Positions 29,136 to 63,938 of a stretch of 64,000 nt of DNA are shown piece by piece (positions within the stretch are counted from its first letter, which is position 1; the number at the start of each line of letters is the position of its first letter). This DNA is from an uncultured Rhodobacteraceae bacterium. Its GTDB lineage: Bacteria; Pseudomonadota; Alphaproteobacteria; Rhodobacterales; Rhodobacteraceae. The stretch lies in assembly GCA_947503765.1 (NCBI GenBank), contig CANNFA010000007.1, forward strand, positions 98,614-162,613. The letters are read 5' to 3'. The notes beneath the pieces are model-generated. The model was not told the origin of the DNA. It was given only the letters and a program-made list of their open reading frames with translations, and did not search any database. Both the position numbers and the translations under genes were made by a program.

Positions 29136-29211
29136 GGGCCGTTAGCTCAGTTGGTAGAGCAACTGACTTTTAATCAGTGGGTCGCAGGTTCGAATCCTGC
29201 ACGGCTCACCA
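29136..29211 (+). tRNA. tRNA-Lys (anticodon TTT), with encoded CCA
   Basis: 76-nt cloverleaf. Acceptor stem GGGCCGT/ACGGCTC, anticodon arm ACTGA-CTTTTAA-TCAGT, T-loop GTTCGAATC. Confidence 0.98.
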
Positions 29212-29213
29212 CT
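29161..29213 (+). repeat. att direct repeat, left copy (within tRNA-Lys)
   Basis: AACTGACTTTTAATCAGTGGGTCGCAGGTTCGAATCCTGCACGGCTCACCACT, identical to 63886-63938. Confidence 0.97.
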
Positions 29214-29276
29214 AAATCGCTAAAAAACAAGAGGTTAAGGATAGCGCAAAGCTAAGCCTTTCCCTCCTGTTTTTGT

Positions 29277-29297
29277 TTTGTCACCGGATTTGTCACC
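29277..29297 (+). repeat. Tandem integrase arm-type sites TTTGTCACC x2
   Basis: TTTGTCACC-GGA-TTTGTCACC. Twenty bp are identical to 63729-63748. Confidence 0.75.
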
Positions 29298-29538
29298 AGA
29301 ATTCCCGCAGCACTGTCAGTGCCCGGATTCGCCCGCAAGAAAACAAGAAAACCTGAATCCCGCCTACCGATTCACGCGCAGCCGCATCGTCCGGCATTGG
29401 CACCACGCCTTGCGCGCGTGCGCACGGGGGTTCCGCCCGCTATTGTGCAGGGTCGAACCTAATTTGTTGCGGTTTATAGCAGGTAGGCTTGGGCCGCCGG
29501 TCCCGATATGGGCGCATCAGGCTTTCACCGGCCCCCCG

Positions 29539-29685
29539 TCACTGTCGCCGCGCACCCTGGGCTTCCAGCCGCGCCCGTTCGCGCTGCATCTCGATCAGCA
29601 GCCGGTTGACGTGCTCCTTCGCCGCCTGTGCGGCCTCTGCGGCGCTCTTTCCTTCATCGCGCAGCTCTTTGCATCCATCGCCGGG
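29539..29685 (-). pseudogene. 3' remnant of an unidentified gene, fused back-to-back with the recombinase relic
   Basis: GC3-rich coding-like frame (CKELRDEGKSAAEAAQAAKEHVNRLLIEMQRERARLEAQGARRQ*) that begins abruptly where recombinase homology starts. Confidence 0.4.
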
Positions 29686-30554
29686 CCGAGCGTATTCGCG
29701 ACAAGTTTGCGGCCAGTCGCAAGAAAGGCATGTGGATGGGCGGCGTGCCACCCTACGGCTATCGGGTCGACAACCGTAAGCTGGTCGTTGACGAAGAGGC
29801 CGCCGCGCATGTGCGCTGGATCTTCGCCCGCTTCCTTGAGATCGGATCGGGGACTGAGCTGGCGCGCGAGGTCGCGAAACGCGGGATCCGCACGCCACGC
29901 GGTAACCGGATCGACAAGAAGTACATCTACCGGATGCTGAACAACCGCGCCTACATCGGCGAAGCGGTCCACAAGGGCGAGAGCTATCCCGGAGAGCACG
30001 ACGCCATCATCGACCGCGACACATGGGACCGCGTACACGCCATCCTGCAAGAAAGCCCCCGCAAGCGCGCCGCCCGCACCCGCGCCGATACGCCCGCGCT
30101 GCTGAAAGGGCTGCTCTACGGCCCCGATGGCGCGGCGTTCTCGCCGACCCACACCCGGAAAGGCGGCAAGCTCTACCGCTACTACGTCAGCCAGACCGTG
30201 CTGAAGCACGGCGCCGGGTCTTGCCCGGTCGGCCGGGTGCCCGCCGGCGAGATCGAGGCCGCCGTCATCGACCAGCTTCGCGCCGTGTTCCGCCAGCCGG
30301 AGATCGTCGCAGGGACGTGGAAGGCGGCACGCGCCCACACCGACGACATCTCCGAGGCCGACGCCCGCACCGCCCTGCAGCAGCTCGACCCGCTGTGGGA
30401 CGAACTGTTCCCTGCTGAGCAGGACCGCATCGTGGCGCTGCTGGTCGAGCGCGTGGATATCGGCACTGACGGGCTCAACGTCCGGCTCCGTGTGGACGGG
30501 CTCGGTGCCCTCGCGCGAGAGATGTTGGCTGGAGACATGGGTGCGGCCGCATGA
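29685..30554 (+). pseudogene. Large serine recombinase, 5'-truncated (catalytic domain missing)
   Basis: Homology starts at AERIRDKFAASRKKGMWMGGVPPYGY, followed by recombinase and zinc-ribbon-like regions. There is no N-terminal resolvase domain or catalytic Ser. Confidence 0.8.
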
Positions 30555-31225: not shown

Positions 31226-31237
31226 AACGAGGGCCAC

Positions 31238-33691
31238 GTGGCAGTCAAAAAGTCGGAAATTTACAGCTCTCTCTGGGCGAGCTGCGATGCGCTTCGGGGC
31301 GGGATGGATGCCTCGCAATACAAGGATTATGTCCTTGTATTGCTCTTCGTGAAGTACGTCTCCGACAAATATTCCGGCGACCCGGATGGGCTGATCGAAA
31401 TCCCCGAAGGCGGCAGTTTTGCGGACATGGTCGCGCTGCGCGGCAATAAGGACATCGGCGAGAAGATCAACATCATCATCGCCAACCTGGCCGAGGCGAA
31501 CGACCTCAAGGGCGTGATCGACGTCGCCGACTTCAACGACCCGGAGAAGCTCGGCACCGGCAAAGAGATGGTTGATCGCCTCTCAAACCTTGTCGCAATC
31601 TTCAATCGCCCGGAGCTGGATTTTCGCAAGAACCGCGCCGATGGCGACGATATTTTGGGCGATGCCTACGAATACCTGATGCGCCATTTCGCCACCGAGT
31701 CGGGCAAGAGCAAGGGGCAGTTTTATACCCCGTCCGAGGTCTCGCGGATCATGGCAAAGGTAATCGGGATAGGTGCCGCGCGCAGCGCCGACCAGACTAT
31801 CTACGACCCCACTTGCGGTTCCGGCTCACTGCTTCTGAAGGCGCATGACGAGGCACCCTACGATCTTACCATCTATGGCCAGGAAAAGGACGTCGCCACC
31901 CGCGCCCTAGCGAAGATGAACATGGTCCTGCACGATTGTCCGACCGCGGAAATCTGGAAGGGCAACACGCTTTCATCCCCACACTTCCTGAACGCGGACG
32001 GCAGCCTAAAGACCTTCGACTACGTGGTCGCCAATCCGCCCTTCTCGGACAAGGCATGGTCGACCGGCGTGTTCGACGAGGGCAAGACCAACCTGACCGC
32101 GCGCTTCACGGTCGAAGGCGAGCGCCCGCCCGAGAAGAACGGCGATTTCGCCTATCTCCTCCACGTGATCGCCTCTCTGAAATCGACGGGCAAGGGCGCC
32201 GTCATTCTGCCCCACGGCGTCCTCTTCCGCGGCAACGCCGAGTCCACGCTGCGCCGCTGGATCATCAAGCGCGGCTACATCAAGGGGATCATCGGCCTGC
32301 CGGCCAACCTGTTCTACGGTACTGGCATTCCTGCCTGTATCGTGGTGCTGGACAAGGAGCTCGCCCAGGCCCGCACTGGCATCTTCATGATCGACGCCTC
32401 CAAGGGATTCGTTAAGGACGGCAACAAGAACCGCCTGCGCAGCCAGGACATCCACAAGATCGTCGACGCCTTCACCAAGCAGGCGCAGATCGACAAATAC
32501 TCGCGGATGGTCCCGCTGGCTGAAATCGAGAAGAACGACTTCAATCTCAACATCCCCCGCTACATCGATGCCTCGGAACCCGAGGACCTGCAGGATATCG
32601 AGGCGCATCTGAGGGGCGGCATCCCGGTGCGGGATGTCGATGCGCTGGATGACTTCTGGCAGGTCGTGCCCGCCGTGCGCCACGACATCTTCGCCCCTGG
32701 CGAACGGCCCGGATACCTGACCCCGATGGTCGAGGTGGCTGAGGTCAAGCCCGCCATCCTGAACCATGCCGAGTTCGCCGCCTATGCCGATACCGTCACC
32801 GCGGTGTTCGACGCCTGGCGCGCGGCGCATATCGACCGGCTGCGGGGTATCGCAATCGGAGACAAGCCGAAGGACTTGATCCACGTGATCTCCGAAGATC
32901 TGCTGGACCGCTTCAAGCCCGTGCCGCTGATCGATGGCTATGACGTGTATCAGCATCTCATGACCTACTGGTCTGAGGTAATGCAGGACGATGTCTATAT
33001 CCTCGTGCAGGATGGCTGGAAGGCCGGGCGTGTGATCCGCGAACTGGTCAGAAACGCCGAGGGCAAGTTCACCGAGACGCCCGACATCACGCTGGGCCGG
33101 CGCAAGCTGAAGGCCGAACTGATCCCGCCCGCGCTGATCGTGGCCCGGTTCTTCGCGGCCGAAAAGGCCGCGTTGGAGGCATTGGAAGCCAAGGCCGAGG
33201 AAGCAGCCCGCGCGATCGAGGAACTGGACGAGGAGCAGGGCGGCGAGGATGGGCTGCTGGCCGATGCCAAGACCGAAAAGGGCAAGCTGACCGCGAAATC
33301 GGTCAAGGACCGGATCAAGGACATTCGCCACGACCGCGATGCGGCTGAGGAGATGGCAATACTCAAGCAGGCGTTGCGGCTGATCGAGGCCGAGGCGGCG
33401 GCGGCCAAGGCGGTGAAGGAGGCGCAGGCAGCGCTGGATGAGGCCACGGTCAGGCACTACGCGAAACTGACCGAGGACCAAGTGAAGGCGCTGATCGTCG
33501 AGGACAAGTGGCTGGCGCGGGTGCAGGGCGATGTGGCGGCCGAGGTTGATCGCGTCAGCCAGGCGCTGGCCGGGCGGGTGAAGTTGCTGACCGAACGCTA
33601 TGCCGCGCCGCTGCCAGAGCTGGAGGATCGCGCGCAGGCGCTGGGCGCAAGGGTGGCCGAGCACCTGAAACGAATGGGGTTCGCCGCGTGA
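31238..33691 (+). CDS. hsdM: Type I R-M methyltransferase subunit
   Basis: LWASCDALRGGMDASQYKDY, GQFYTP, YDPTCGSG, the NPPF (m6A) motif and a long helical C-terminus. Confidence 0.95.
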   Translation: MAVKKSEIYSSLWASCDALRGGMDASQYKDYVLVLLFVKYVSDKYSGDPDGLIEIPEGGSFADMVALRGNKDIGEKINIIIANLAEANDLKGVIDVADFNDPEKLGTGKEMVDRLSNLVAIFNRPELDFRKNRADGDDILGDAYEYLMRHFATESGKSKGQFYTPSEVSRIMAKVIGIGAARSADQTIYDPTCGSGSLLLKAHDEAPYDLTIYGQEKDVATRALAKMNMVLHDCPTAEIWKGNTLSSPHFLNADGSLKTFDYVVANPPFSDKAWSTGVFDEGKTNLTARFTVEGERPPEKNGDFAYLLHVIASLKSTGKGAVILPHGVLFRGNAESTLRRWIIKRGYIKGIIGLPANLFYGTGIPACIVVLDKELAQARTGIFMIDASKGFVKDGNKNRLRSQDIHKIVDAFTKQAQIDKYSRMVPLAEIEKNDFNLNIPRYIDASEPEDLQDIEAHLRGGIPVRDVDALDDFWQVVPAVRHDIFAPGERPGYLTPMVEVAEVKPAILNHAEFAAYADTVTAVFDAWRAAHIDRLRGIAIGDKPKDLIHVISEDLLDRFKPVPLIDGYDVYQHLMTYWSEVMQDDVYILVQDGWKAGRVIRELVRNAEGKFTETPDITLGRRKLKAELIPPALIVARFFAAEKAALEALEAKAEEAARAIEELDEEQGGEDGLLADAKTEKGKLTAKSVKDRIKDIRHDRDAAEEMAILKQALRLIEAEAAAAKAVKEAQAALDEATVRHYAKLTEDQVKALIVEDKWLARVQGDVAAEVDRVSQALAGRVKLLTERYAAPLPELEDRAQALGARVAEHLKRMGFAA

Positions 33692-34941
33692 CGATGCAGG
33701 AGAAGATCAGGCCGGGCTACAGGCAGACCGACGTCGGGGTGATCCCAGAGGATTGGGATGTGGTGCCAATCGGAGGCTTGGGTGAAGTGCGGACGGGGGG
33801 CACTCCGCCCACCAATCGCCGCGAATTGTATGGCGGTGGGTATCTGTTTGTGAGCCCGGCGGATATCGGCGCAAACAAATACATTAATAGGACAGAAAAA
33901 ACGCTATCTCTCGAAGGTTTTCGCAGTTCACGCATTTTCCCGGCCGGCTCTTCGTTATTCGTTTGCATCGGCTCAACCATTGGGAAGGTGGGGTTGGCCG
34001 CGGTCGATCTTTGTTCCAACCAGCAAATTAATTCGGTCTCCCCTGAGGCAAATGTTGACTCTGAGTTTCTCTTTTACTCACTCGTGCATGCATCACCTAG
34101 AATTGCAGCATTGGCTGGCGAGCAGGCAGTCCCAATAATCAATAAGTCTGCATTCAGCGCCAACTTGATAGCGCTACCGGGCAAAGATGAGCAGCGAGCC
34201 ATCGCCGAGGCGCTGTCGGATGCGGATGCGCGAATTTTAACGCTGGAAACGCTGATCGCCAAGAAGCGCGACCTCAAGCAGGCCTCCATGCAACAGCTCC
34301 TCACCGGCAAAACCCGCCTGCCGGGCTTCTCGGGCGACTGGGAAGCGAAGCGGCTGGGGGACTTGGGTTCGACGTACGGTGGGCTGACTGGGAAATCCAA
34401 GGTGGATTTTGGGCATGGCTCTGCAAAATACATCCCCTTTATGAATGTAATGACCAATGTCGTTGTCGACCTCAATAGTTTAGAGAAGGTCGACGTAAGG
34501 CCCGGCGAGAGCCAGAACCAAGCCCGCGCTGGCGACTTATTCTTCAACGGCTCTTCGGAAACGCCTGAAGAGGTTGGGATGTGTGCGTTGTTGGCAGAAA
34601 ATGTCGAGGACCTGTATCTTAACAGCTTCTGTTTTGGTTTCCGGCTTAAGTCGGATGCAGCTGCAAATGGTTTGTTTCTGGCTGGTTACTTCCGCAGTCA
34701 GCAAGGCAGAGATCTGCTTGCGTCGCTCGCACAGGGGGCGACACGCTACAATCTTTCAAAGCGGGCTCTTCTGAAGGTGGAATTCGCTTGTCCGTCTCTG
34801 GATGAACAAGTCGCAATCGCCGAAATCCTCTCAGACATGGATGCAGAAATCGCAGCGCTGGAGGCCGAGGCCGAAAAGGCCCGTGGCATCAAGCAGGGCA
34901 TGATGCAGAACCTGCTGACGGGGAAGGTGCGGCTGGTATGA
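33688..34941 (+). CDS. hsdS: Type I R-M specificity subunit
   Basis: Two low-GC TRDs separated by the conserved EQRAIAEALSD...KQASMQQLLTGK block, repeated at the C-terminus. Confidence 0.93.
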   Translation: MTMQEKIRPGYRQTDVGVIPEDWDVVPIGGLGEVRTGGTPPTNRRELYGGGYLFVSPADIGANKYINRTEKTLSLEGFRSSRIFPAGSSLFVCIGSTIGKVGLAAVDLCSNQQINSVSPEANVDSEFLFYSLVHASPRIAALAGEQAVPIINKSAFSANLIALPGKDEQRAIAEALSDADARILTLETLIAKKRDLKQASMQQLLTGKTRLPGFSGDWEAKRLGDLGSTYGGLTGKSKVDFGHGSAKYIPFMNVMTNVVVDLNSLEKVDVRPGESQNQARAGDLFFNGSSETPEEVGMCALLAENVEDLYLNSFCFGFRLKSDAAANGLFLAGYFRSQQGRDLLASLAQGATRYNLSKRALLKVEFACPSLDEQVAIAEILSDMDAEIAALEAEAEKARGIKQGMMQNLLTGKVRLV

Positions 34942-35351
34942 GCTTCGGCTGGGCCGTCGATGCGCTGGTTGTCTTCGGCGGGCTCTCCGGCTGGGCGGCA
35001 GCCTACTTCTCTTGGTGGGAGTGGCAGAACACGAAGAAGAAGATCGCCATGCTCACCGACGCGGGCGCGGCCGCTGAGGTCCTGCCAGCCTGGTACACAT
35101 CCAGAATGATGACCGATCATTGGACCTTCGGGCTGCTGACAGAGGCCGGAAAGATGGTCGTGATCAAGCGAATTACGGCGCTTTCAGACGATGGGCGATG
35201 GATCGACGTCGAACTTGCGGAGAGCGAAGTGCTCGACTGGTTGCCGAAGGACTATCCGGCTGATTTCGTTTTCGCAGTCGGCCCCGAGAGGACGTCGGCA
35301 TCGCTGCAGATCTCCAAGATCGTTGCCGCGGTCGACCTGATGAATTCGTGA
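34938..35351 (+). CDS. Hypothetical protein with an N-terminal TM helix (137 aa)
   Basis: ATGA overlap with the hsdS stop. Hydrophobic residues ~5-27 followed by a beta-rich soluble region. Confidence 0.75.
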   Translation: MSFGWAVDALVVFGGLSGWAAAYFSWWEWQNTKKKIAMLTDAGAAAEVLPAWYTSRMMTDHWTFGLLTEAGKMVVIKRITALSDDGRWIDVELAESEVLDWLPKDYPADFVFAVGPERTSASLQISKIVAAVDLMNS

Positions 35352-35359
35352 GGCGCTGA

Positions 35360-36100
35360 ATGGTGAGTAGCGACCATCACAAGCGTCTGTTCATCGGCTG
35401 GGATGTCGGCGGCTGGAACTGCGACAAGAACCAGAACAGCCGCGACGCGCTGGTCGTGCTGGATCATACGGGCCAGACCCTCGGCCAGCCCTGGCGAGGC
35501 AATCTGCGCGAGACGATCAACAGCGCGACGACGCCATCGGCCTTCCTCGCCGCGCTCCTTGCGCTGTGCAAGCTGGACAACCCCGCTCGACCCAGCCACG
35601 CCACCCTTGCCATCGACGCCCCGCTCGGCTTCCCCGAGGCCTTCGCCCGCATGATCGCGGGTGGCGCCCCGGTCGATCAGATCGGTCGATCGGCAGCGAA
35701 CCCCTACCTCTTCCGGCACACCGAGCGGCGGCTGGTGGCCGAAGGGGTCACGCCGCTCTCGGCGATCAAGGACATGATCGGCAGCCAGGCGACGAAGGCG
35801 ATGCACGTGGTCGCGCGCTTTGCCCCACAGCGCCTGTCGACCGGCGTCTGGACAGATGGCGCGCATCTGACCGTGATCGAAACCTACCCGGCGCTGTGCC
35901 GCGCCCGCCTCGGGCCGCATGTTCGTACTGAACCGATCCCGAAAACCGGTCGCGAGGCAGATATTCACGACGCCAGTGTCTGCGCCCGCATCGCCCGAGA
36001 CTTCCATTTGAACCGCGAGCGCCTTGAACCCCCGACCGATGAAACACCGCCCTCGGAAGGCTGGATCTGGGCGCCGCGCCGCGTTTTTGTTGAGGCATAG
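35360..36100 (+). CDS. DUF429-like predicted RNase H-fold nuclease
   Basis: FIGWDVGG, LAIDAPLGFP, VIETYP and DASVCA acidic motifs. Confidence 0.75.
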   Translation: MVSSDHHKRLFIGWDVGGWNCDKNQNSRDALVVLDHTGQTLGQPWRGNLRETINSATTPSAFLAALLALCKLDNPARPSHATLAIDAPLGFPEAFARMIAGGAPVDQIGRSAANPYLFRHTERRLVAEGVTPLSAIKDMIGSQATKAMHVVARFAPQRLSTGVWTDGAHLTVIETYPALCRARLGPHVRTEPIPKTGREADIHDASVCARIARDFHLNRERLEPPTDETPPSEGWIWAPRRVFVEA

Positions 36101-36106
36101 TTCACG

Positions 36107-39100
36107 ATGAGCACCGTTGGCCAGATCGAGAGAAGAACTCAGAAGCGCGTCGTCGACCTGTTTCGGAACGCGTTGGGCTATGAGTACCTGGGCAACTGGA
36201 TCGATCGCGCTGACAAGATCGGTCGTCCGAACCGCAACATTGAGGACGAGTATCTGCGTCCCTTCCTGGAAAGGCAGGACTATTCCCCCGAACTGATCAC
36301 CCGCGCGATCCAGCAGCTGACGAAGGTTGCCACCGACCAGTCCCGCAGCTTCTACGACACCAACCGCGTTGTCTATGACCTGCTGCGCTACGGGGTGAAG
36401 GTGAAGGCCGATGTGGGGGATCAGACCCGCACTGTCTGGCTGATCGATTGGGCAAACCCTGCTGCCAATCATTTCGCGATCGCCGAAGAGGTCGCGGTGA
36501 AGCCCGCGGGCGACAAATCCTTCGGCAAGCGCCCGGACGTGGTGATTTATGTCAACGGGATCGCGCTGGGCGTGCTGGAACTGAAACGCTCGACCGTATC
36601 GGTGTCCCAGGGCATCCGGCAGAGCCTCGACAACCAAAAACCGGTATTCATCCAGCCGTTCTTCACCACCATGCAGCTGATCATGGCGGGGAACGACACC
36701 GAGGGGCTGCGCTATGGCGTCATCGAGACACCCGAGAAGTACTGGCTGACGTGGAAAGAGGAAGGCGGGCCGGAAAACCCCCTGGACCGCGCGCTGGTCC
36801 AGATGTGTGCCAAGCCGCGGTTCCTTGAACTGGTCCACGATTTTCTGGTGTTCGACGCCGGCGTGAAGAAGACCTGCCGCCACAACCAGTATTTCGGTGT
36901 GCGCGCAGCGCAGGACCACATCCGCCGACGAGAAGGCGGGATCATCTGGCACACGCAAGGGTCGGGCAAGAGCCTGACGATGGTATGGCTGGCCAAATGG
37001 ATACGCGAGAACGTGCCTGACAGCCGGGTGGTGGTGATCACCGATCGCACCGAGTTGGACGAGCAGATCGAAAAGGTCTTCAACGGGGTCAACGAGGAAA
37101 TCCTGCGCACGAAATCCGGCGCCGATCTGATCGCCCGGCTGAACGACACGAACCCATGGCTGCTGTGCTCGCTGATCCACAAGTTTGGCGGCAAGGAGGA
37201 CAGCGACGCGGATGTCGAAGGTTACGTCGAGGATTTGAAGAGCGCGCTGCCCAAGGACTTTAGCGCCAAGGGCGATATCTTCGTCTTCGTGGACGAATGC
37301 CACCGCACGCAAAGCGGCGATCTGCACAACGCAATGAAGGCGATCCTGCCCAGCGCAATGTTCATCGGTTTCACTGGCACGCCCCTTCTGAAGGCCGACA
37401 AGCAGACGAGCCTCGAAGTGTTCGGCCCATATATCCATACGTACAAGTTTGACGAGGCGGTGTCGGACGGTGTGGTCCTAGATCTGCGCTATGAGGCCCG
37501 AGATATCGACCAGAACATCACGTCGCAGGCGAAGATCGACAAATGGTTCGAGGCCAAGACCAAGGGCCTGACCGATATGGCCAAGGCGCAGCTGAAGAAG
37601 CGCTGGGGTACGTTGCAGAAGGTGCTGTCCAGCCAGTCGCGGCTGGAAAAGATCTTGGCCGATATCCTGATGGACATGGAGACCCGGGACCGGCTTCAAA
37701 GCGGCCGCGGCAACGCCATGCTCGTGTCGTCGAGCATCTATCAAGCGTGCAAGTTCTTTGAGCTGTTCGACAAGACCGATCTGGCGGGCAAGTGCGCGAT
37801 CGTCACCTCCTACAAACCGTCGCCGAACGACATAAAGGGCGAGGAAAGCGGCGAGGGGCTGACGGAACGCCTGCGACAATACGATATCTACAACAAGATG
37901 CTGGGGGGCAAGGAGCCCGAGGCATTCGAGAAGGAGGCGAAGCGGAAGTTCATCGATGAGCCAGGGCAGATGAAACTGCTGATCGTCGTGGACAAGCTGC
38001 TGACCGGCTTTGACGCCCCCTCGGCCACGTATCTCTACATCGACAAGAAGATGCAGGACCACGGCCTGTTCCAGGCGATCTGCCGGGTGAACCGGCTGGA
38101 CGGGGACGACAAGGAATACGGCTACATCATCGACTACAAGGACCTGTTTAAGAGCCTTGAGACCTCGATCAAGGACTACACGGCCGAGGTTTTCGATGGT
38201 TATGACAAGGCGGATGTAGCGGGCCTGCTTTCGGATCGGCTTGAAAAGGCGCGCGAGAGGCTGGACGAGGCATTGGAAGCTGTCCGGGCTCTCTGTGAAC
38301 CGGTCGAGCTGCCCCGCGATACCCTCGCCTACCAGCGCTTCTTCTGTGCAAAGGACACGGCCGACAAGGAGGCGCTGAAGGAGAATGAGCCGAAGCGGCT
38401 AACCCTCTATCGGCTGGTGGCCTCGTTGTTGCGCGCCTACGCCGATGTGGCAAACGAGATGAGCGAGGCCGGCTACTCCGAGGCCGAGGTCGCCAGTATC
38501 AAAGCGGATGTCGATCACTTCGAGAAGGTGCGGAATGAGGTGAAGCTGTCGAGCGGTGACTATATCGATCTGAAGATGTACGAGCCGGCGATGCGGCACC
38601 TGATCGACACCTATATCCGCGCCGAAGAAAGCGAAGTGATCTCGGCCTTTGACGATGTTTCGCTGATCCAGCTTATCGTTGAGAGGGGGGTGGATGCGGT
38701 CAACGCCTTGCCCCAGGGCATTCGTCAGAGCAAAGAAGCCGTGGCGGAGACGATCGAGAACAACGTCCGGAAGCTGATCATCGACGAGACGCCGATTAAT
38801 CCGAAGTACTATGAGAAGATGTCCGAACTGCTGGACGCCCTAATCGAGCAGCGCAAGCGCGAGGCGCTGAGTTATCAGGAGTATCTCGCTCAGATAGTCG
38901 AGCTCACGAAAAAGGCCCAAGGCACCGAAACGGCCGCCTCGTATCCAGCCGCGCTGAATTCGAAGGCGAAGCGCGCGCTTTTCGACAATCTCGATGGGGA
39001 CGAGGCCCTGGCTTTGGCGATCGACGAAGAAATTCGCCTCACCAAGAAGGACTCCTGGCGCGGCAACAGGTTCAAGGAGAAGGAGGTGCGCAACGCAATC

Positions 39101-51459: not shown

Positions 51460-51479
51460 AGCGACACCCATAGCTATTG

Positions 51480-51526
51480 TGCCCATTTATTGGGCAATTT
51501 CCAAATCGCTGCGCAAATCTTGTGCA
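51480..51526 (+). promoter_or_regulatory. Tandem NtrC-like binding sites
   Basis: TGCCCA-TTTAT-TGGGCA (51480-51496) and TGCGCA-AATCT-TGTGCA (51510-51526), 30 bp apart, upstream of glnK. Confidence 0.75.
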
Positions 51527-55027: not shown

Positions 55028-55518
55028 CGCTCATACCACTCGTCCAGTTCAGCGAACGGGTTCGGTCCGGCATCGCTCATTCCGGCCACCCGGGTCCGCG
55101 CCGAAGGCGTCAGCCCGAACTCGGCCGCATAGCGCACCATGTCGGCCATCGCCTTGTTCGCCGCCCCGACCAGCGGGTTCTGGATCAGGTTGCCGCTCTT
55201 CGTCTTGACAATCAGACCGTCGGTGACCGTATCCCGTGCGGCCATGCGCGCCAGCGCCGTCTCGGCAGCCGCCCAGCGGCCGTAGGCCTGGCAATAGGCC
55301 GCCAGCGCCCCGCGATCGAGATCGGTCAGGATGCCCAGGGCCACCAGGTCGACGACAACCCGGTCCCATTCCTGCCGCGCGGCATCGGTCAGATGCTCGG
55401 GCGGGTCGGGTTTGGCCGCATCCGGCGCCGGCTCATGCGGGTTGATCCGGTGGGCGCGCGCCGTTCCGGTCAGCAGCTTGAGTTTGGTGGGTTTCGGCTT
55501 CGGCCCGCGCGGCGCCAT
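55024..55518 (-). CDS. P27-family terminase small subunit, copy 1
   Basis: RGPKPKPT, PPEHLTDAARQEW, DRGALAAYCQAYGRW, IQNP and EFGLTPSARTR. Strong RBS AGAAAGGAG. Confidence 0.9.
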   Translation of the reverse strand: MAPRGPKPKPTKLKLLTGTARAHRINPHEPAPDAAKPDPPEHLTDAARQEWDRVVVDLVALGILTDLDRGALAAYCQAYGRWAAAETALARMAARDTVTDGLIVKTKSGNLIQNPLVGAANKAMADMVRYAAEFGLTPSARTRVAGMSDAGPNPFAELDEWYER

Positions 55519-55544: not shown

Positions 55545-55645
55545 TCGTTCGACCCCCGGTCGGAATCATGGCCGCGTGAAAATCTGGCTCCCCACGCCGG
55601 TCCCGTGGCCCCCGTCTGGGAAGAATCAGCGTGCCCCCCGGGGGT
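55545..55645 (-). other. Candidate cos / packaging site
   Basis: Non-coding G-run-flanked block GGGGGGCAC...GGGACCGGCGTGGGGAGCC...TTTTCACGCG...CCGGGGGTC immediately upstream of terS, the usual position in HK97-like cos phages. Confidence 0.6.
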
Positions 55646-55800
55646 GGCGGCACCGCGCAGTCCGGTCAAGGTCCGCCGTGCCGTGTCGGGGTTGCTAACG
55701 TGACTGCCCGACTGAAACCGGGCCGCATGGGCGGAGATAGCCCGCGCGCGGCCAGCGCAACGGGCGACGGGCAAGATGGAGCCCGCCGCCTGCATCCTCA

Positions 55801-57024
55801 TCAGGTGCCGACGCGCAGCAGCTTGATCGCTTCGGAGTTGAACACCGCGCCACCAACGCGCTTGGTCGTATAAAACCGCACGTTCGGTTTGTCGGTGAAC
55901 GGATCGCGCAACATGCGCAGCCCGGTCCGGTCAACGATGATGTAACCACTCGCGAAGTCCCCGAAGGCGATGGGCGTCGTGCCCGCGCCCACGTCCGGCA
56001 TTTCCTCGTCCAGTGCCACCGGGAAGCCCAGCAGGCGCGGCGGTTCACCGGCGGCGATGCTGTCAGCCCAGAGAAAACGGCCATCCGTGTCCTTGAATTT
56101 GCGGGCAATGGCGGCGGTCTTGCGGTTCATGATCCACGACGCTCCGGCACGATACTCGGGCTTGAGCGTGTAGGTCAGATCAATCAGCGCGTCAGCCGGG
56201 CTGACCGATGTCGTCGGCGCCAGAAAGCCGTCAGCCTTGCCGGTCGGCGTGGTCTGAATCGTTCCCCACGCCCGCGCGTCGTCGTCGGTGTCGGCGGTAT
56301 CATATTGCAGGATGCCGCGCGGCTTGTTCACACCATCACCGTTGATGAATGCCGCGCCTTCCTTACGCGCGAACCGCTGCGAGATATGCCCCGTCAGCCA
56401 CGTTGCCAGGTCGAAGGTGGAATCGTCCAGCAGGCGTTGCGTGATCTTCGGCATGGCCGAAATCTCGTGAACCGGCACGCTCAGTTTGTGCAGCGTCGGG
56501 GAAACCGTGTCGCCCCGCGCCTCGCGTTCCGCCACCCATTCGGCCCCGCCTTCGCCTGTGTCCGCGATCTCTTCGAACACGTCCGTTGCGATGACCTCGG
56601 TCCGCGCCAACTGGCGCATGGGCGAGATTGCGTGAAGCCGCTCGGTCATCACCGGCGAAAGATACGGGACCACTGTAAACCCGCCGTCCGGCGCGCTGTC
56701 GGTGCTCAAGCCCGCATTGATGCCAGTTTGCAGCGATGCGAGGGGGGCCTCGTCACCGTCGCGGATCAACCGGCGCAGGGCGCTGTTCACCTCGGTCCGG
56801 TCGCGCTCAGACGCGCCGCCCGATGCCGGGCCGGCCCCGCCGACGCGCATCCCCGCAAGAGTCTGATTGACCTCATCAAGCCCGGCCTGCAATTCGCGCA
56901 CCTGACCGTGGTGGTTCTGTTTGAATTCGCTGAAGGCGGTAGTCATTTCGTTCAGGATTTGAGCAGGATTGCCCGAGGCGTTCGCACGCACGGCCAGAAT
57001 CCCGCGGAACTGTTCATGTTTCAT
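55801..57024 (-). CDS. HK97-fold major capsid protein with an N-terminal delta-like domain
   Basis: DGGFTVVP, MRQLA, KITQRLLDDSTFD, AFINGDG...PRGIL, FGDF and RVGG. ATG 57024 is preferred on RBS spacing. Confidence 0.93.
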   Translation of the reverse strand: MKHEQFRGILAVRANASGNPAQILNEMTTAFSEFKQNHHGQVRELQAGLDEVNQTLAGMRVGGAGPASGGASERDRTEVNSALRRLIRDGDEAPLASLQTGINAGLSTDSAPDGGFTVVPYLSPVMTERLHAISPMRQLARTEVIATDVFEEIADTGEGGAEWVAEREARGDTVSPTLHKLSVPVHEISAMPKITQRLLDDSTFDLATWLTGHISQRFARKEGAAFINGDGVNKPRGILQYDTADTDDDARAWGTIQTTPTGKADGFLAPTTSVSPADALIDLTYTLKPEYRAGASWIMNRKTAAIARKFKDTDGRFLWADSIAAGEPPRLLGFPVALDEEMPDVGAGTTPIAFGDFASGYIIVDRTGLRMLRDPFTDKPNVRFYTTKRVGGAVFNSEAIKLLRVGT

Positions 57025-57244
57025 CTGAAACACCTTTCATGTTGCCCCAAAGGGCGTTTGTTTTTCGGGGAATTCCGCCGCTACGGCAGGCGGTTCGCGC
57101 GGGCCTTGTGCTGTTCTGCATCGGCATTGCGGATACTTCACGCGCCGCCGGGCAGTGCATCGAGCCGGGCCTTGCCAGTGGTGCAGCGTCGTGCGTGCCC
57201 CGCGTGGCAGGACCAAAGCGCAGCGCATGGCAATGCACCTTGAT

Positions 57245-57498: not shown

Positions 57499-57812
57499 GT
57501 CAGGTTCCTTTCGTGGTGGTGGTTTCGAGCCATCGCGGCGGCGGCGTCCCATACCGCCTCAATTGCCTCAGGCGTGCGTGCTACCCCGTCCGGGTCGGCC
57601 AGGGCGGCGGCGCGTTCTTCGTAAAGGTCGCGGGTCAGGCCCTCGGGTGAGATTTCAAAAACAGGAACCCACCCCGTTCCTAATCTTCCGAATGCTCCTA
57701 ATCCTGCCCCGCGCGCATCGCATGGATTAGGACGAATAGGACGATTAGGATGGTCCCGCAGTTTTCGCGCAGCTTCCAATGCCGCCTTTGCGTCGAAGCT
57801 AAAGCCGGTCAT
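57495..57812 (-). CDS. Hypothetical protein overlapping the candidate origin
   Basis: ATGA-coupled to the primase. Its tripeptide repeats (PNR/PIR/PNP, LGA/FGR/LGT) are the translation of the iterons. Confidence 0.55.
   Translation of the reverse strand: MTGFSFDAKAALEAARKLRDHPNRPIRPNPCDARGAGLGAFGRLGTGWVPVFEISPEGLTRDLYEERAAALADPDGVARTPEAIEAVWDAAAAMARNHHHERNLT
57677..57751. repeat. Inverted arrays of 9-bp iterons (candidate replication origin)
   Basis: TTCCTAATC TTCCGAATG CTCCTAATC - 21 nt - GATTAGGAC GAATAGGAC GATTAGGAT. Confidence 0.75.
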
Positions 57813-60328
57813 GCCAGCCCCTCGCGCACGATCCGCCACGCTTCCTTGCGGGGCTTGCCTGCCACCTCTGCGCCGTGATCCTCGACCAGCCATCCGTGCG
57901 CCTGAAGGCGTTGCAGCGCCTTGCGTGCTCGATCTGTCACCTTGAACGGCCCGCGCTGCGCCGCGATACCCGCCGAGATACACGGCTCGGCCCATGATCC
58001 CAGCAGCCATTTGCGCATCCGCTCCGCATCGGCCACCTCGGGCGGCAAGATTGCAGCATCCGCGAGGCGCGCAGCCTCGTTCGCGTAGAAGGTCGCAATC
58101 TCCGTTGCCCCGGCCATTGTCTCGCCCGTTACCTCGGGCGCGTCAGGGTCCGCATAGATCGTCAGCACCGCCGCGAGGCGGGCGGCATGCTCTGCGGTTT
58201 TCGACGCGAAGGCGCGCGCATCCTCGAAGGGTCTGCCCGGTGCCTGCGCCTTTTCCACTTCGCGCGCAAAGCAGGTCAGCACCGCGCGGGCCTCTTGCGA
58301 CATGGACACGACCGGCGGCGCGAGTTCGCTACGCTTGCCATCCGCTAGGGGCAGGTCGCGGGATAGAAGCGACCGGATGCGGGCGGCAAAGCTGGCAATC
58401 CGGGCCTCGGCTTGCGCGTCCCTCTCCATGCGCAAGCGGGTGCCGATGCGCGAGGCGGGGCGGCACGTCAGGAAGCGGGCGAGAAGGCCTTGTCCGTTCG
58501 CCATCGGATCCGATAGCAGCGCCTCAGCCGCGACCGGCTGCACAAGGATATGTGCCGAAAAGCGCCGCCCGGTATAGGCTTCAACGCCATCGCCTGCGCG
58601 CCACCTGTCGAGCGGTGCGCCGTCCCACATGGCGCTGAAGCTGGCACAGGTGGCGAGGCGGTTTTCCGCCTTCATGCTGTGCCCGCCGATGAGTGCGCCG
58701 CCTTCCTCGGTCATGATACCGAGGCTTGCGCGCAGTTCGGGCAGGTGTTTCACGATCCCTTCAATCGTCGGCGCGCTTGCCACGATATGCGGCTTGATCG
58801 GCGCGGGCGGTTCCGGCCCCAGGGCTTGCAGATCGGCCCGCTTCGCGGCGGCGTCGGCTTTCTTGTCTCCGATGATCTTCGCGCGGGTGGCCTTCCATAT
58901 CTCGTGCGCATCGCGCCAAAGGTCGTGCTGGATATCGTAATCGGTGCGCAGATCGGCCTCGAAGTCGCGCACACCCTTCATGGCGAGGCGGTCGGCAGTG
59001 CTCTTGCGTTCCCCGCTCTCGGCCACCGTCAGCAAAAACAGGCTTGCAGGTGCAATGCCGTTCAATGTCTCCGCGTCCCGATGCCCCTGCGCGGCCAATG
59101 CCGCCGAGGCGAGCACGCTTGCCGCGCACATGGCGACTGGGGCCTCGGTCGCGCGGGCAATAGCCTCTGCCGGTTCGCGCAGCGGCCCCAACGCCGCCAC
59201 CGGATAGGGTCCGGCCTCGGGCATTTCGCGGATGAGTGGCGTCGGGTCTGCACGGTCGAGGCGGTTCTGGTCGCGCTCGCGTTGCACGCGCTCGGCTTCA
59301 TCGCGGCCCGCCTCGGTTTCGCCCGAATAGAGGCCATGCCGCGCGAGATGCCCGAGGCGCAGGCGGCGCAGGGTGTTCTGCACGCGCTTGCGCAATGCCC
59401 GCTGCCCCGGCTCAGAGGTCCAGCGATCATCACCTTCAGTCTCCTGACAAAAGCGCAGATAGGCGGCATCGAAGATTTCTTCGGCGGTCGGGTCTGCGCC
59501 TGTCGCGCGCTGATACTTGGCGAGTTCGGCAATCACGATCTGCCGCCAAAAGGCTTCGCGGCCATCCGTGACCAGCCCGGAGGCGTCGCGGATGATCTCG
59601 CCCGGCCCGCCATTGCCGCCTTTGCCGCCTTTGTGTGTCGGCTGCCAGCCCGGCAAGGGGCCGAGGCGCGCGAGGCGGTCGAGGTCTGCGGCGGGCGCAT
59701 CCTCGGTTATGACGGCGGTCAGCTCGTCAACATAGCCTTTCGCCTGCTTTGCCGGGTCTGTGATCCAGTTGACCGTGCCGCCAAGGCGCAGAATGCGCGC
59801 GCTGTCCCTGACCTTCGCATCGGCCCCCACATGCGCCACCAGCGCGCCCAGGGCTTCAGTGTAGGTGTCCGGATCGTCGCAAAGTTCGCGCAGCGGCAAC
59901 CAGTGATGGACGCGCTTTTCGGGGTGCTGGCCCGTCCTGACGCGGATCGCGCCTTTCAGGCCAGCCCCCGCGATCCGTTCGGCCACCTTGTCCGCGTCCT
60001 CGTCGGCTTCACAACCGGCATAGGCGGCGGCGTAGAAGTCCAATGTAGAGCCGCGCCGGAATCGGTTAGAATCCGGTGCCCGCAATGCCGCGCCGATGTA
60101 GAGGTTCGCGCCCTCGGCATTGCGGTCAGCAGCGAAAGCGGCGGCGGCGTCGATCTCATCCAAACCGAAAAGGCGGGCGCGATTAGGTGCCGGATCGCCG
60201 GGCGCGGTATAGGCAATTTCGCAAAGCCCGTCCTCGAATTCGGATTGCATGAAAGGTACGGCCCATGCGGCAATGTGCTGCCGGATCGCGGGCAGGTTGG
60301 GGGCAAGGATGGTGTCCTGCATGTTCAT
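57809..60328 (-). CDS. Primase-helicase (RepB/AEP-like primase N-terminus, DUF3987-like P-loop helicase C-terminus), 839 aa
   Basis: NLYIG and RVHHW primase-like motifs, Walker A-like AESGERKS, Walker B-like TEEGG and GLLARFL. Start at MNMQD. Confidence 0.85.
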   Translation of the reverse strand: MNMQDTILAPNLPAIRQHIAAWAVPFMQSEFEDGLCEIAYTAPGDPAPNRARLFGLDEIDAAAAFAADRNAEGANLYIGAALRAPDSNRFRRGSTLDFYAAAYAGCEADEDADKVAERIAGAGLKGAIRVRTGQHPEKRVHHWLPLRELCDDPDTYTEALGALVAHVGADAKVRDSARILRLGGTVNWITDPAKQAKGYVDELTAVITEDAPAADLDRLARLGPLPGWQPTHKGGKGGNGGPGEIIRDASGLVTDGREAFWRQIVIAELAKYQRATGADPTAEEIFDAAYLRFCQETEGDDRWTSEPGQRALRKRVQNTLRRLRLGHLARHGLYSGETEAGRDEAERVQRERDQNRLDRADPTPLIREMPEAGPYPVAALGPLREPAEAIARATEAPVAMCAASVLASAALAAQGHRDAETLNGIAPASLFLLTVAESGERKSTADRLAMKGVRDFEADLRTDYDIQHDLWRDAHEIWKATRAKIIGDKKADAAAKRADLQALGPEPPAPIKPHIVASAPTIEGIVKHLPELRASLGIMTEEGGALIGGHSMKAENRLATCASFSAMWDGAPLDRWRAGDGVEAYTGRRFSAHILVQPVAAEALLSDPMANGQGLLARFLTCRPASRIGTRLRMERDAQAEARIASFAARIRSLLSRDLPLADGKRSELAPPVVSMSQEARAVLTCFAREVEKAQAPGRPFEDARAFASKTAEHAARLAAVLTIYADPDAPEVTGETMAGATEIATFYANEAARLADAAILPPEVADAERMRKWLLGSWAEPCISAGIAAQRGPFKVTDRARKALQRLQAHGWLVEDHGAEVAGKPRKEAWRIVREGLA

Positions 60329-60423
60329 CAGGGCGCCCCCCAGATCAGCGCACAAAGCGCGGATGCCTGCGCCTCGGTCATCCCGTGCAGGCGCATCAGA
60401 AGGCGGATTTGAAGCTGTCTCAT
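60328..60423 (-). CDS. 31-aa micro-ORF
   Basis: MRQLQIRLLMRLHGMTEAQASALCALIWGAP*. ATGA overlap upstream and TGATG overlap with the primase start. Not in the ORF track. Confidence 0.6.
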   Translation of the reverse strand: MRQLQIRLLMRLHGMTEAQASALCALIWGAP

Positions 60424-60662
60424 ACCGCGCCCCCCACCATTTCCAGCGGGTCGAATTCGCCCGCGCCCTCGACGCGCGCCAGGACGCGGCCCCGGTCATC
60501 CCTCAGAACGCGGTGCGGATCGCAGTTGCAGAGCCGCGCGGCGGTGTAGATCGCGCAGCCCGGATCGTGCTGGAATTCGACGTGATAGAGATTGCCGCGC
60601 TTGATATGTTTGCGCTGCGCGGCGGCCCACGCCCGGCGGGCCTGTCTTCTGGATTGTGTCAT
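60420..60662 (-). CDS. Small His/Cys-rich hypothetical protein (80 aa)
   Basis: HDPGC...CNCDPH cluster, coupled to downstream ORFs. Confidence 0.7.
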   Translation of the reverse strand: MTQSRRQARRAWAAAQRKHIKRGNLYHVEFQHDPGCAIYTAARLCNCDPHRVLRDDRGRVLARVEGAGEFDPLEMVGGAV

Positions 60663-61611: not shown

Positions 61612-61671
61612 TTTTTTAGCCTCACGTTGTTTCGACGTGCGGCCAGTGTCGCGCTTTGGCGATGGAAGGGC

Positions 61672-62397
61672 TTAGCCCGTTTTTCCAACTTTCTTTAGGT
61701 CATCGCGAATTGTTCTGTCGGTAACTCTGATTCCGAGGTCGTCGTAGTTGTCCTTGAAATACCTCTGCACCTCACGCACCAAGGCGCCATGAGTGGCGCT
61801 TGATTGTGCCGCGAATTCCGCAACAATTTTCTGCCGCTTCTCAGCTTTCTCCCGTTTTTTCTCGTTTGCGCTGTTGCGGTGATCATCCAGAACTCTAGTC
61901 TGCTTCTTCCCCGAAATTGCCAGTTCTTCGCGCCTCTTTCCGGTCAGCGGGTCTACTCCCGCGCGCCACCACATGCGCTCTTGAAGGCGTCCCATTTCCT
62001 CAGTTGCCATGAGCATCCGAGATAAGTTGTTCGGGGAAACGTCGCCTGCCTCAAACCGCTCGCGACCTCGCGTCAACGCGTTATATTCAGCCAGCCAGTG
62101 CGCCGCTATCCATTGTGCAGAGTTTTCGGCCAAACCTTTCGCGCGCAGAGTCCCGATATTCACCGCGCACATACCATCATCGGTCATTCCATCGGTTGCA
62201 AGGATTGCTCGGCATCGCTCTGCATTATGCCGATGCAAGGCATCACCGAGCCAATCGCCCGGCGCAGCCTGCGGCTGCCGTTCCGCATATTTCTTCCACG
62301 CCTCAATGATCGCCTCAATGTCTTTCGGATCATCCATTCGATACTTGATTTCGGTCCGCTGCATCATTCCGGTGTCTTTGGTAACTTTTTTGGCCAT
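61672..62397 (-). CDS. Hypothetical protein with a C-terminal HTH-like segment (241 aa)
   Basis: TAATG overlap with the integrase stop, lower GC, and C-terminal VREVQRYF...VTDRTIRDDLKK. Confidence 0.7.
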   Translation of the reverse strand: MAKKVTKDTGMMQRTEIKYRMDDPKDIEAIIEAWKKYAERQPQAAPGDWLGDALHRHNAERCRAILATDGMTDDGMCAVNIGTLRAKGLAENSAQWIAAHWLAEYNALTRGRERFEAGDVSPNNLSRMLMATEEMGRLQERMWWRAGVDPLTGKRREELAISGKKQTRVLDDHRNSANEKKREKAEKRQKIVAEFAAQSSATHGALVREVQRYFKDNYDDLGIRVTDRTIRDDLKKVGKTG

Positions 62398-63704
62398 TAC
62401 TGCGCCCTTTCCAGCTTCACCACGTTGTCGAACTGCGCGGCGTCGGGGTCTTGCCCGGCTACGATCCGCGACAATCGCGCGCCCCATGCCTCCAGCGCCG
62501 CGCGCCGTTCATCCTTGAAGTCGTGCCGATCATAAACGCCCCGGATACCCGGTATCACATGCCCGGTGACGATCTCGGCTATATCCGGCCTCACCTTGCA
62601 GGCGCTCAATTCCGTGCGCATGGTGCGCCGCAAATCATGTGGACGCCACCGCCCGCGCCCATCCGCCTCTCCCCGATCACCAAGAGTCTCACCAACCCGC
62701 AGAACGGCCCGAGCAAGCCCTGCATTGGTGATCGGCGCACCGGGCCTTGCCTCGAAGATAAAGCCGCTCCACGTCTCATTTCTGCGCCTGTGCAGGCGTT
62801 CCAGTTCGGCCTTGGCGTCCGCGACGATCTGCAAGGCGGTCTCGCTTAAATAGACTTCCTGCGCGCTATCCGTCTTGCCCCTGCGGCTTGCCGGAATAGT
62901 CCACCAGCGGCCCGAGATTTCATCCTCGTGCATCCCGGCGACCTCGCCCGGCCTTTGCCCCGTGATCAGCACCAGCTTGAGGCAAAGCGCGGTCAGCCGA
63001 TGCAGGCCGCAGGTTTCGGCATTGGTCCAGAAGGCGCGGATTTCGTCGTGATCCAGAACGCGGGCGCGCGGCTTGGCCTTGAGTGGGTTGCGCTGCCCTT
63101 TCACGGTTATCGAGGTCGGTTTCAGATCGGCCACCGGGTTCGCCATGATAATTTCGCGGTCTGCGGCATAGGACAGAATCTTGCGCGTGTAGATCAAGAG
63201 TTGCGCGGCGCTGCGCGGTGCCCTTTCCGCCTTGGCCTCGACCATGTCGATCACGTCCCGGCGTCGCACGTCCGTAACCTTCAAGTCGCCCAGCGTCGGC
63301 ACGATATCGTTGTTCACCAGCCCACGAATTGTGCCGATGCTCTTTAGTCCCGTCTGTTTGTCCAGCCATTCCCCCGCAAGGTCTGCCATCGTCGGCTCGG
63401 CCTTGCGACGTCTCTTGGCCTCTAACGGATCGTCGCCCCGGTCAATCCGCTGCACCAGATCGCGAGCCTCGATCCGCGCCGCTTCAAGCGTCCAGGTCGG
63501 CCAGTCGCCTATCGTCTTGCGGCGCTGTTTCCCTTCCACCGTGTATTGCAGCACGAAAGCCTTTCCGCCCGCAGCGGTGATCCGCAAGGCAAAGCCGCGC
63601 GGCGCGTCCCGGTGGTCATCCCAGATGAAACGCTGCCCCTTGGCGGGTGCCTCGGCCTTCGCAATCGTGCCGCTCTTACCATCTGTCAGTTTGCCCACGG
63701 TCAT
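62397..63704 (-). CDS. Tyrosine integrase (P4-like, with an N-terminal arm-binding domain)
   Basis: IWD...PRGFALRITAAGGKAF arm domain, and catalytic TGQRPGE, PHDLRRT, GH and VYDRH all intact. Confidence 0.95.
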   Translation of the reverse strand: MTVGKLTDGKSGTIAKAEAPAKGQRFIWDDHRDAPRGFALRITAAGGKAFVLQYTVEGKQRRKTIGDWPTWTLEAARIEARDLVQRIDRGDDPLEAKRRRKAEPTMADLAGEWLDKQTGLKSIGTIRGLVNNDIVPTLGDLKVTDVRRRDVIDMVEAKAERAPRSAAQLLIYTRKILSYAADREIIMANPVADLKPTSITVKGQRNPLKAKPRARVLDHDEIRAFWTNAETCGLHRLTALCLKLVLITGQRPGEVAGMHEDEISGRWWTIPASRRGKTDSAQEVYLSETALQIVADAKAELERLHRRRNETWSGFIFEARPGAPITNAGLARAVLRVGETLGDRGEADGRGRWRPHDLRRTMRTELSACKVRPDIAEIVTGHVIPGIRGVYDRHDFKDERRAALEAWGARLSRIVAGQDPDAAQFDNVVKLERAQ

Positions 63705-63728
63705 ATCCCCTTGATGCCTGCGCCGCGA

Positions 63729-63872
63729 TTTGTCACCGGATTTGTCACTAACTGAAACAGGGTTCGGTGGCGCAACGTGTCGTCATGTGTCAGTTAACAT
63801 ACGGCATATGTCAATTAAAAACAGGGTGTTATGTGCGTTCGATTTTGAATTTGTCACCAAATCAGCAGCTTA
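63729..63872 (+). repeat. Integrase arm-type sites and IHF-like boxes
   Basis: TTTGTCACC/T at 63729, 63741 and 63850. WATCAR-N4-TTR matches at 63860-63872 (full) and 63819-63831 (1 mismatch). Confidence 0.7.
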
Positions 63873-63885
63873 AAAACTGGTTCAA

Positions 63886-63938
63886 AACTGACTTTTAATC
63901 AGTGGGTCGCAGGTTCGAATCCTGCACGGCTCACCACT
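63886..63938 (+). repeat. att direct repeat, right copy (3' part of tRNA-Lys)
   Basis: 53-bp identity to 29161-29213. The acceptor 5' strand and D-arm are absent. Confidence 0.97.

Follow-up and report, generated by a model that had tools for sequence, protein, structure and literature searches.

A probable PICI-type satellite at tRNA-Lys in a Rhodobacteraceae bacterium, apparently enlarged by a foreign insertion of nutrient-acquisition, arsenic and restriction-modification genes

A 64,000-nucleotide stretch of DNA from an uncultured Rhodobacteraceae bacterium (GenBank assembly GCA_947503765.1, contig CANNFA010000007.1, positions 98,614 to 162,613), here called the window, contains a 34.7-kb element integrated at a tRNA-Lys(UUU) gene. 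We consider it probable that this element is a satellite of the phage-inducible chromosomal island (PICI) type, with a backbone of about 9.9 kb, into which a foreign insertion of about 24.8 kb has entered in two blocks behind the small terminase (terS) genes. The backbone would comprise, in order, an attachment (att) site, a tyrosine integrase (int), an HTH_17 protein resembling Xis or AlpA, a DUF3987 helicase with an iteron origin, a lone HK97 capsid gene, terS, a small open reading frame (ORF) and the second att site within the tRNA gene. As judged from alignments with related loci, these 24.8 kb of cargo entered secondarily, in the post-terS accessory slot of a satellite family whose members otherwise measure 6-10 kb. 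An earlier note on this DNA had described one intact, nutrient-scavenging, satellite-like island in which the satellite and nutrient-cargo lifestyles are merged. The att-bounded unit that it recognized is there, while the merged lifestyle gives way to a secondary insertion into a compact satellite.

The element is bounded by a perfect 53-bp direct repeat that consists of the 3' 51 nt of tRNA-Lys plus 2 nt, the copies lying 34,725 bp apart (Table 1). This tRNA gene is the only one of the window according to ARAGORN and Rfam, and nothing else in the island was matched in an Rfam scan. The only exact copies of TTTGTCACC, at 29277, 29289, 63729 and 63850, stand no more than 160 bp away from an att core, and these repeats are best read as putative arm-type sites for the arm-binding integrase. 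Since the same repeats occur at both ends, the two would be parts of one attP, with the entire 34.7 kb as one predicted excision unit, which a single integrase should excise. The region thus has the features of a tRNA-integrated genomic island, namely a direct repeat of the tRNA 3' end, an integrase and a foreign composition. The left flank has a GC content of 0.68, against 0.64 for the backbone and 0.61 for each of the cargo blocks. Because of this difference from the flank, because relatives have no cargo at the site, and because a second, native pst operon is present on contig C3 of the same genome, the cargo is foreign; these findings do not agree with fixed chromosomal DNA merely lying between the repeats, the outcome that the note had named as fatal to its interpretation.

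The limits of the insertion were located by alignment to the relatives. DNA homology extends from attR via int, helicase and capsid to about position 55637, and then jumps 26 kb to 29539-29687 and the arm at the tRNA gene. In the relatives, a conserved ORF of 79-81 amino acids overlaps the terS stop codon. What is left of it in the window aligns only to residues 39-79 of the ORFs in loci L021 and L033; its N-terminal 38 codons were lost at the cargo junction, and the remnant is fused to unrelated sequence. Satellite homology ends on this side at 29687. At the right junction (54446-54485), the stop codon of terS_a lies at 54485, and homology to a recombinase copy on contig C4 starts at 54445. 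The insertion is therefore about 24.8 kb long (29688-54445/54485), and the backbone without it measures 9,440 + 474 bp, or 9.9 kb, which is the size of the nearest relatives. Because the tRNA-proximal 474 bp, with the arm repeats and the small-ORF remnant, are satellite-derived, the cargo lies inside the satellite.

The last point bears on whether two independent islands could stand in tandem at tRNA-Lys, a cargo island proximal to the tRNA gene and a satellite distal to it. The tRNA-Lys site is an integration hotspot, the DNA downstream of it being different in every relative compared, and another species of the genus (G004) has an unrelated 15.3-kb island there with a 49-bp repeat. No third att copy was found inside the element on either strand, even when 3 mismatches per 20-mer were allowed, and the tandem arrangement was rejected for want of this internal copy; together with the satellite origin of the 474 bp, this makes it very hard to credit. 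The G004 island (L015, contig C15 of that genome, 862-16166) encodes a DUF927/Toprim primase and a distal integrase 28% identical to that of the window.

The relatives were found by scanning one genome per GTDB species with the window replication protein. This gave 18 related loci in at least 8 Rhodobacteraceae genera, including Roseovarius, Lutimaribacter, Salibaculum, Loktanella, Marivita, Shimia, Marimonas, Aliishimia and others. By tblastn of the island proteins, the loci have the common order int, HTH_17, small ORFs, helicase, capsid and terS, and L021 is the fullest match. A tRNA gene lies within about 1 kb after terS, and a copy of its 3' end stands immediately before int on the upstream side. 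The att-to-att length was 6.1-9.95 kb in all 11 relatives where it could be measured: L021 (9.95 kb), L022 (8.6 kb), L023 (9.0 kb), L024 (9.9 kb), L027 (8.3 kb), L028 (9.6 kb), L030 (6.1 kb), L031 (9.6 kb, no tRNA gene detected at the site), L033 (9.8 kb), L035 (9.0 kb) and L037 (9.9 kb). The window element is about 3.5 times as long as its nearest relatives, and 3.5-5.7 times across all eleven. Locus L033, from a Loktanella metagenome-assembled genome, has the same tRNA-Lys repeat (52/53 nt), and both its integrase and its tRNA-proximal arm are 84% identical to those of the window. In the compact relatives the post-terS slot holds one or two small accessory genes, such as a retropepsin-like aspartyl protease in L021 (15800-16330) and a 159-amino-acid ORF of unknown function in L033 (8615-9094). 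A second compact satellite, alike in architecture, is present in the genome of the window itself (C3:626,909-636,125), at tRNA-Asn, with a 50-bp direct repeat and a length of 9.2 kb; its capsid protein is 45% and its integrase 32% identical to those of the window element, and one of its ORFs is 84% identical to window 60774-61181.

The helicase is 80-91% identical at the amino acid level in other genera and absent from all seven other species of the genus, where the genes flanking the element are just 75-78% identical at the DNA level. A helicase that is close in other genera and absent from the other species of its own indicates that the backbone is horizontally mobile. Near-identical backbone DNA was absent from phage records, neither the helicase nor the capsid recovered a family member from IMG/VR, and exact-protein look-ups for int, terS_b and phoB gave no match.

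Gene content was assigned by Pfam and PHROGs scans of about 40 ORFs (Table 1). The integrase, the capsid and the two TerS genes listed in the earlier note were all recovered in this way, and its candidate origin corresponds to a real array of 3+3 head-to-head 9-mers, conserved on both strands in L028 and L037. Identity to L021 is 72% for the integrase (amino acids, tblastn), 90% for the HTH_17 protein (84-91% in four relatives), 85% for the helicase and 80% for the capsid homologue (both amino acids), which is the only head gene of the element. The two terS genes stand in tandem and are 41% identical. The conserved stretch between capsid and terS keeps its identity with L033 despite unrelated terS genes. 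No frameshift or stop was found in int, the HTH_17 gene, the helicase, the capsid gene or either terS, and the helicases of L033 and L037 are fragmented. The backbone genes are full length, and their dN/dS of 0.17-0.25 against L021 points to purifying selection. The replication protein is composite. Its N-terminal 420 amino acids (window 59240-60499) matched nothing in Pfam (E up to 1) or in a PDB sequence search, so that the primase of the previously proposed primase-helicase is at most putative. This part is common to 3 of the 18 relatives, and the remaining ones (loci L024-L035 examined) match the DUF3987 half alone; with such a distribution, the N-terminal domain was probably swapped within the satellite family.

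A degraded prophage that has kept only capsid and terS could also leave an HK97 capsid gene, terS and an integrase, and the element has in addition an M15 peptidase with an endolysin-like PHROG match. This peptidase gene belongs to the cargo and not to the backbone. The minimal set of genes is shared by 18 loci from different genera, at 9-10 kb and under purifying selection, and remnants of portal, large terminase (TerL), tail or holin genes occur in none of the loci; none of these families was found among the ORFs scanned in the window. Decay from a prophage is accordingly a most improbable origin.

Table 1. Features of the window element (window positions).
Feature	Position	Strand	Evidence or remark
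tRNA-Lys(UUU), integration target	29136..29211	+	ARAGORN; Rfam tRNA 76 bits
attL, left copy of 53-bp direct repeat	29161..29213	+	100% identity to right copy
Two exact TTTGTCACC arm-type repeats, tRNA-proximal arm	29277..29297	+	starts 29277, 29289
Remnant of conserved small post-terS ORF, C-terminal 40 codons	29539..29660	-	alignment to L021 and L033 ORFs
Large serine recombinase, 5'-truncated	29628..30554	+	Recombinase + Zn_ribbon_recom; no Resolvase catalytic domain (Pfam)
Type I restriction-modification operon, block A	31238..39890	+	Pfam
hsdM	31238-33691	+	
hsdS	33688-34941	+	
ORF in restriction-modification operon	34938-35351	+	
PDC-S44/DUF429-like, between hsdS and hsdR	35360-36100	+	PADLOC phage-defence candidate PDC-S44, E = 1e-98
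hsdR	36107-39172	+	
YgjP-like metallopeptidase	38994-39890	+	
200-bp repeated non-coding element, left edge of block B	40058..40257	.	blastn 85% to C4:412429-412627, 86% to C2
phoB	40471-41163	-	Pfam
phoU (first)	41172-42008	-	Pfam
phoR	42117-43169	-	Pfam
arsC	43236-43658	-	Pfam
acr3	43655-44722	-	Pfam
arsR	44767-45132	-	Pfam
phoU (second)	45129-46040	-	Pfam
pstB	45865-46689	-	Pfam
pstA	46683-48008	-	Pfam
pstC	47987-49372	-	Pfam
pstS	49433-50512	-	Pfam
M15 peptidase (D-Ala-D-Ala carboxypeptidase family)	50932..51486	-	Pfam; weak endolysin-like PHROG peptidase match
glnK	about 51642-51977	+	Pfam
amtB	about 52096-53322	+	Pfam
Small serine recombinase, plasmid type	53657..54421	-	Resolvase + HTH (Pfam); adjoins right cargo junction
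terS_a	54485..55027	-	P27-family; Pfam Terminase_4, PHROG 83
terS_b	55024..55518	-	P27-family; Pfam Terminase_4, PHROG 83
Conserved non-coding stretch, capsid-terS interval; candidate packaging site or promoter	55637..55759	.	84% identical to L033
HK97-fold major capsid protein homologue	55801..57033	-	Pfam Phage_capsid E = 1e-86; PHROG 10
Candidate origin, 3+3 head-to-head 9-bp iterons (TCCTAATCN)	57678..57750	.	directly downstream of helicase gene
Replication protein, DUF3987 helicase domain aa 453-814	57809..60499	-	Pfam E = 4e-82; PHROG helicase/primase
HTH_17 gene, excisionase/AlpA-like, 68 aa	61405..61611	-	Pfam E = 5e-7
Tyrosine integrase	62397..63704	-	Phage_integrase + Arm-DNA-bind_3 + Phage_int_M; PHROG 1
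TTTGTCACC arm-type repeats, integrase-proximal arm	63729..63858	+	starts 63729, 63741 (1 mismatch), 63850
attR, right copy of 53-bp direct repeat	63886..63938	+	53/53 identical to left copy

The cargo consists of block A (29688-40057, about 10.4 kb) and block B (40058-54445, about 14.4 kb), each with a serine-recombinase gene at its outer end. Neither recombinase gene was in the earlier gene list, the rest of which (pstSCAB, phoR, phoB, two phoU, arsenic genes, glnK-amtB and a type I restriction-modification system) agrees with our annotation. At the left junction, the Recombinase domain of the truncated large enzyme, which has no paralogue in its own genome, starts only about 105 bp beyond the point where satellite homology stops. 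Given this truncation and that of the small post-terS ORF, calling the island intact was an overstatement.

The small recombinase is full length in comparison with its plasmid homologues and 50-56% identical to the recombinases (about 220 amino acids) of 6-30-kb Rhodobacteraceae plasmids. A copy 88-95% identical to it on contig C4 (C4:410,155-412,416) is frameshifted and split by a 1.5-kb insertion sequence (transposase ORFs at 410,450-411,890). On C4, the 200-bp repeated element lies 94 bp upstream of this copy, while in the window the two homologues sit at opposite ends of block B, a pattern expected of a circular molecule that was opened beside the recombinase gene and then inserted. Such a molecule may thus be the source of block B, and both blocks would have entered through serine-recombinase or plasmid cointegration events. 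An inversion that split one recombinase gene into two opposite-strand pieces was also considered and rejected: both genes cover the start of the Recombinase/HTH region, the small one is complete, and no inverted repeats flank the cargo.

Block B is itself a mosaic, with arsC-acr3-arsR nested within the pho/pst cluster. Among 400 genomes of the family, the arsRBC unit occurs commonly, with identities reaching 82%, and essentially no ars match reaches into phoR or phoU, the longest overrun being about 100 nt; the ars unit was found alone and the ars-in-pho arrangement was not recovered. No near-identical donor DNA was found for the cargo, the best plasmid matches being 73-82% identical over single operons. 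The 200-bp element has its C2 copy at C2:2325-2448, belongs to no Rfam family and may be a site of recombination or mobility. At window 53380-53637, a stretch that is non-coding or a pseudo-ORF, also with no Rfam match, has copies of 72-83% identity on contigs C12, C13, C14 and C3, the first three of which have a lower GC content and are possibly plasmid. Outside the element, a thiamine pyrophosphate riboswitch in the left flank (18809-18918; Rfam RF00059, 61 bits) is unrelated to the island.

The marine alphaproteobacterial host seems to depend on the cargo. It has kept a native pstSCAB-phoU operon (C3:181.4-186.9 kb), to which the pst and phoU products of the island are 42-82% identical, and tblastn of its own genome found no other phoB, phoR or amtB. 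All species of the genus have a phoR-pstSCAB-phoU-phoB arrangement with one copy of each gene. In alignments with two of them (G004 and G003), a 1.25-kb segment with phoB gives way to 142 bp (C3:181,248-181,390) and a 1.55-kb segment with phoR to 57 bp (C3:186,728-186,785). Likewise, the native glnK-amtB of G001 and G003, about 2.2 kb, corresponds to 118 bp in this genome (C10:5,761-5,880), where the flanking genes are adjacent; amtB is present in nearly all relatives. With the native phoB, phoR and glnK-amtB cleanly deleted from core loci that have otherwise kept their synteny, the host has no Pho two-component system and no ammonium transporter but those of the island, which as the sole source of these functions is under selection to stay. 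The island phoB is 70-76% identical to the copies of the genus and amtB 67-79% to those of the family, both being xenologues.

Such dependence on phoB, phoR and amtB is what would be seen if the region were an immobilised relic, in which the satellite functions have fallen into disuse and fixed chromosomal DNA is kept only for its cargo. The excessive size of the island, the truncated small ORF and the lack of a known helper agree with this. In contrast, the uninterrupted int, HTH_17, helicase, capsid and both terS genes, unlike the helicases of L033 and L037, the distal att copy that is still 53/53 identical, and a cargo GC3 (GC content at third codon positions) that has not yet drifted toward the host value all speak against it. 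We therefore regard a relic as rather unlikely.

At the other extreme, the whole 34.7 kb might be a functional satellite, induced by a helper phage, replicated from the iterons, packaged by way of terS and a cos or pac site, and transducing its nitrogen, phosphorus, arsenic and restriction-modification genes as a unit. With the candidate regulator counted, each of the five PICI core functions has its full-length ORF, arm sites accompany the perfect att repeats at both ends, and the satellite family moves across genera. The phages with the nearest capsids have genomes of 38-45 kb, of which 34.7 kb is 77-92%, so that one copy would fit a helper-sized head. In all 11 measurable relatives, by contrast, the unit is 6-10 kb long, which implies packaging tuned to small units, and the cargo truncates a conserved backbone ORF beside terS. 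No helper phage was found in the genome itself or among 50,697 phage records, in which the nearest terS and capsid proteins share about 40% identity with those of the element, and exact look-ups of int, terS_b and phoB revealed no cargo-bearing copy elsewhere. A fully functional element of this size is thus unlikely. In the reading preferred here, the element would be too long for whatever small capsid its capsid gene specifies, and could travel, if at all, only in heads of the 38-45 kb class. Transfer in helper-phage particles is the weakest link of the earlier interpretation; that the whole element is carried in particles at present is equally unlikely, and that it is still a working satellite moving in helper-sized capsids is a shade less likely again. 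If this were true, it would be the first PICI-type satellite known to transduce a full set of Pho regulon control genes (phoBR, two phoU and pstSCAB) together with arsenic detoxification, glnK-amtB and type I restriction-modification genes, and a satellite would have displaced the phoBR and amtB of its host, leaving core nutrient regulation on a phage parasite.

On contig C11 (about 66-82.4 kb), a cluster resembles an RcGTA-type gene transfer agent, with TerL- and portal-sized ORFs, a capsid gene, a 1478-amino-acid ORF and a native GC3 of 0.87-0.93. Its capsid protein is 44.6% identical to that of the island. Such a cluster could not plausibly serve to carry 35 kb.

Several points weigh against a compact satellite enlarged by a two-block insertion. 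Excision, replication and packaging of the element are putative, and indexed sequencing runs matched only metagenomes with 5-11% of the sampled words. The argument from capsid capacity is arithmetic on lengths and not a measurement. The part proposed for the recombinases in the capture is inferred from their junction position and one signature of circular permutation, and no crossover site was identified for them. The cargo may have been gained before or after the loss of the native genes. Finally, the empty tRNA-Lys site that was to be sought in sister strains was not demonstrated: the left flank and the tRNA gene are conserved among 40 relatives, the right flank is located elsewhere in each, and a search of these genomes with the joined flanks returned no empty site with conserved synteny. 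This failure is explained by the DNA downstream of tRNA-Lys, which varies in every relative.

If the element is nevertheless a satellite with a secondary insertion, it represents an apparently undescribed family of compact Rhodobacteraceae satellites with a lone capsid gene and terS that moves between genera, and the accessory slot of one member has captured tens of kb of metabolic DNA via serine-recombinase-linked insertions. It would also provide a clear example from nature of xenologous displacement, the master control of nutrients having come to lie on a potentially mobile, phage-dependent element. Should the element still be packaged, it would offer a route for whole nutrient-acquisition regulons between marine bacteria; should it not, it would exemplify a satellite locked in place by host dependence.

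PICIs are built from an integrase, a regulator, a replication protein, a capsid-related gene and terS, with accessory genes after the terS homologue (de Sousa et al. 2023, PMC10085698). Under the SatelliteFinder definition given there, the window element would classify as a PICI by its predicted gene content. The genes stand in canonical order: the integrase, the capsid-related gene and the small terminase were found, the HTH_17 protein (Pfam E = 5e-7, with no match to Phage_AlpA) is a candidate for the alpA, merR or stl homologue, and the place of the primase-replicase is taken by DUF3987 with iterons, no primase domain having been found. The backbone has no other phage structural or lysis genes, the M15 peptidase with its weak endolysin PHROG match being part of the cargo, and the cargo occupies exactly the post-terS accessory position. 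The element differs from known PICIs in its host clade, the Rhodobacteraceae, for which the literature searched contained no paper describing satellites, and also in its full HK97 major capsid homologue, its two terS genes, its total of 34.7 kb, and its 24.8 kb of metabolic and restriction-modification cargo, where PICIs usually have a few kb of genes for defence or virulence.

PICIs of the SaPIbov5 type carry a capsid homologue (Ccm), a single HK97-fold gene without the rest of the head module. The lone capsid homologue of the window element is like it by description only and suggests remodelling of the helper capsid; the window element differs in its Gram-negative host and in having terS genes as well. 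Capsid-forming PICIs (cfPICIs) share the major capsid and terS with it. None of the genes that define cfPICIs (portal, protease, head-tail adaptor or connector, and TerL) turned up within the att-bounded unit. Nor did Pfam or PHROGs match the psu, delta and sid genes by which P4-like satellites are recognized; in their stead the element has an HK97 capsid homologue and terS. The virion-encapsidated integrative mobile elements (VEIMEs) are likewise marine satellites with integrase and replication genes, some of them in Alphaproteobacteria; they have no capsid genes (Eppley et al. 2022, PMC9618062), whereas the satellite family of the window has one.

The tycheposons of Prochlorococcus resemble the window element in tRNA integration, a tyrosine recombinase, a replication module, and either phosphorus and nitrogen cargo or capsid and terS genes, and their gene lists include small serine recombinases (Hackl et al., bioRxiv 10.1101/2020.12.28.424599). 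The resemblance is functional and taken from the text of that paper, membership being defined by hallmark profiles shared in picocyanobacteria. PICI-like tycheposons were never seen with cargo (bioRxiv 10.1101/2020.12.28.424599), so the contrast drawn in the earlier note was fair, and if our reading holds, the combination of a PICI with nutrient cargo that is reported absent among tycheposons occurs here. The window element differs from them in uniting capsid and terS genes with nutrient cargo, the latter visibly a secondary insertion, and it is a counter-example, in another phylum, to the rule that capsid/terS genes and cargo never coincide.

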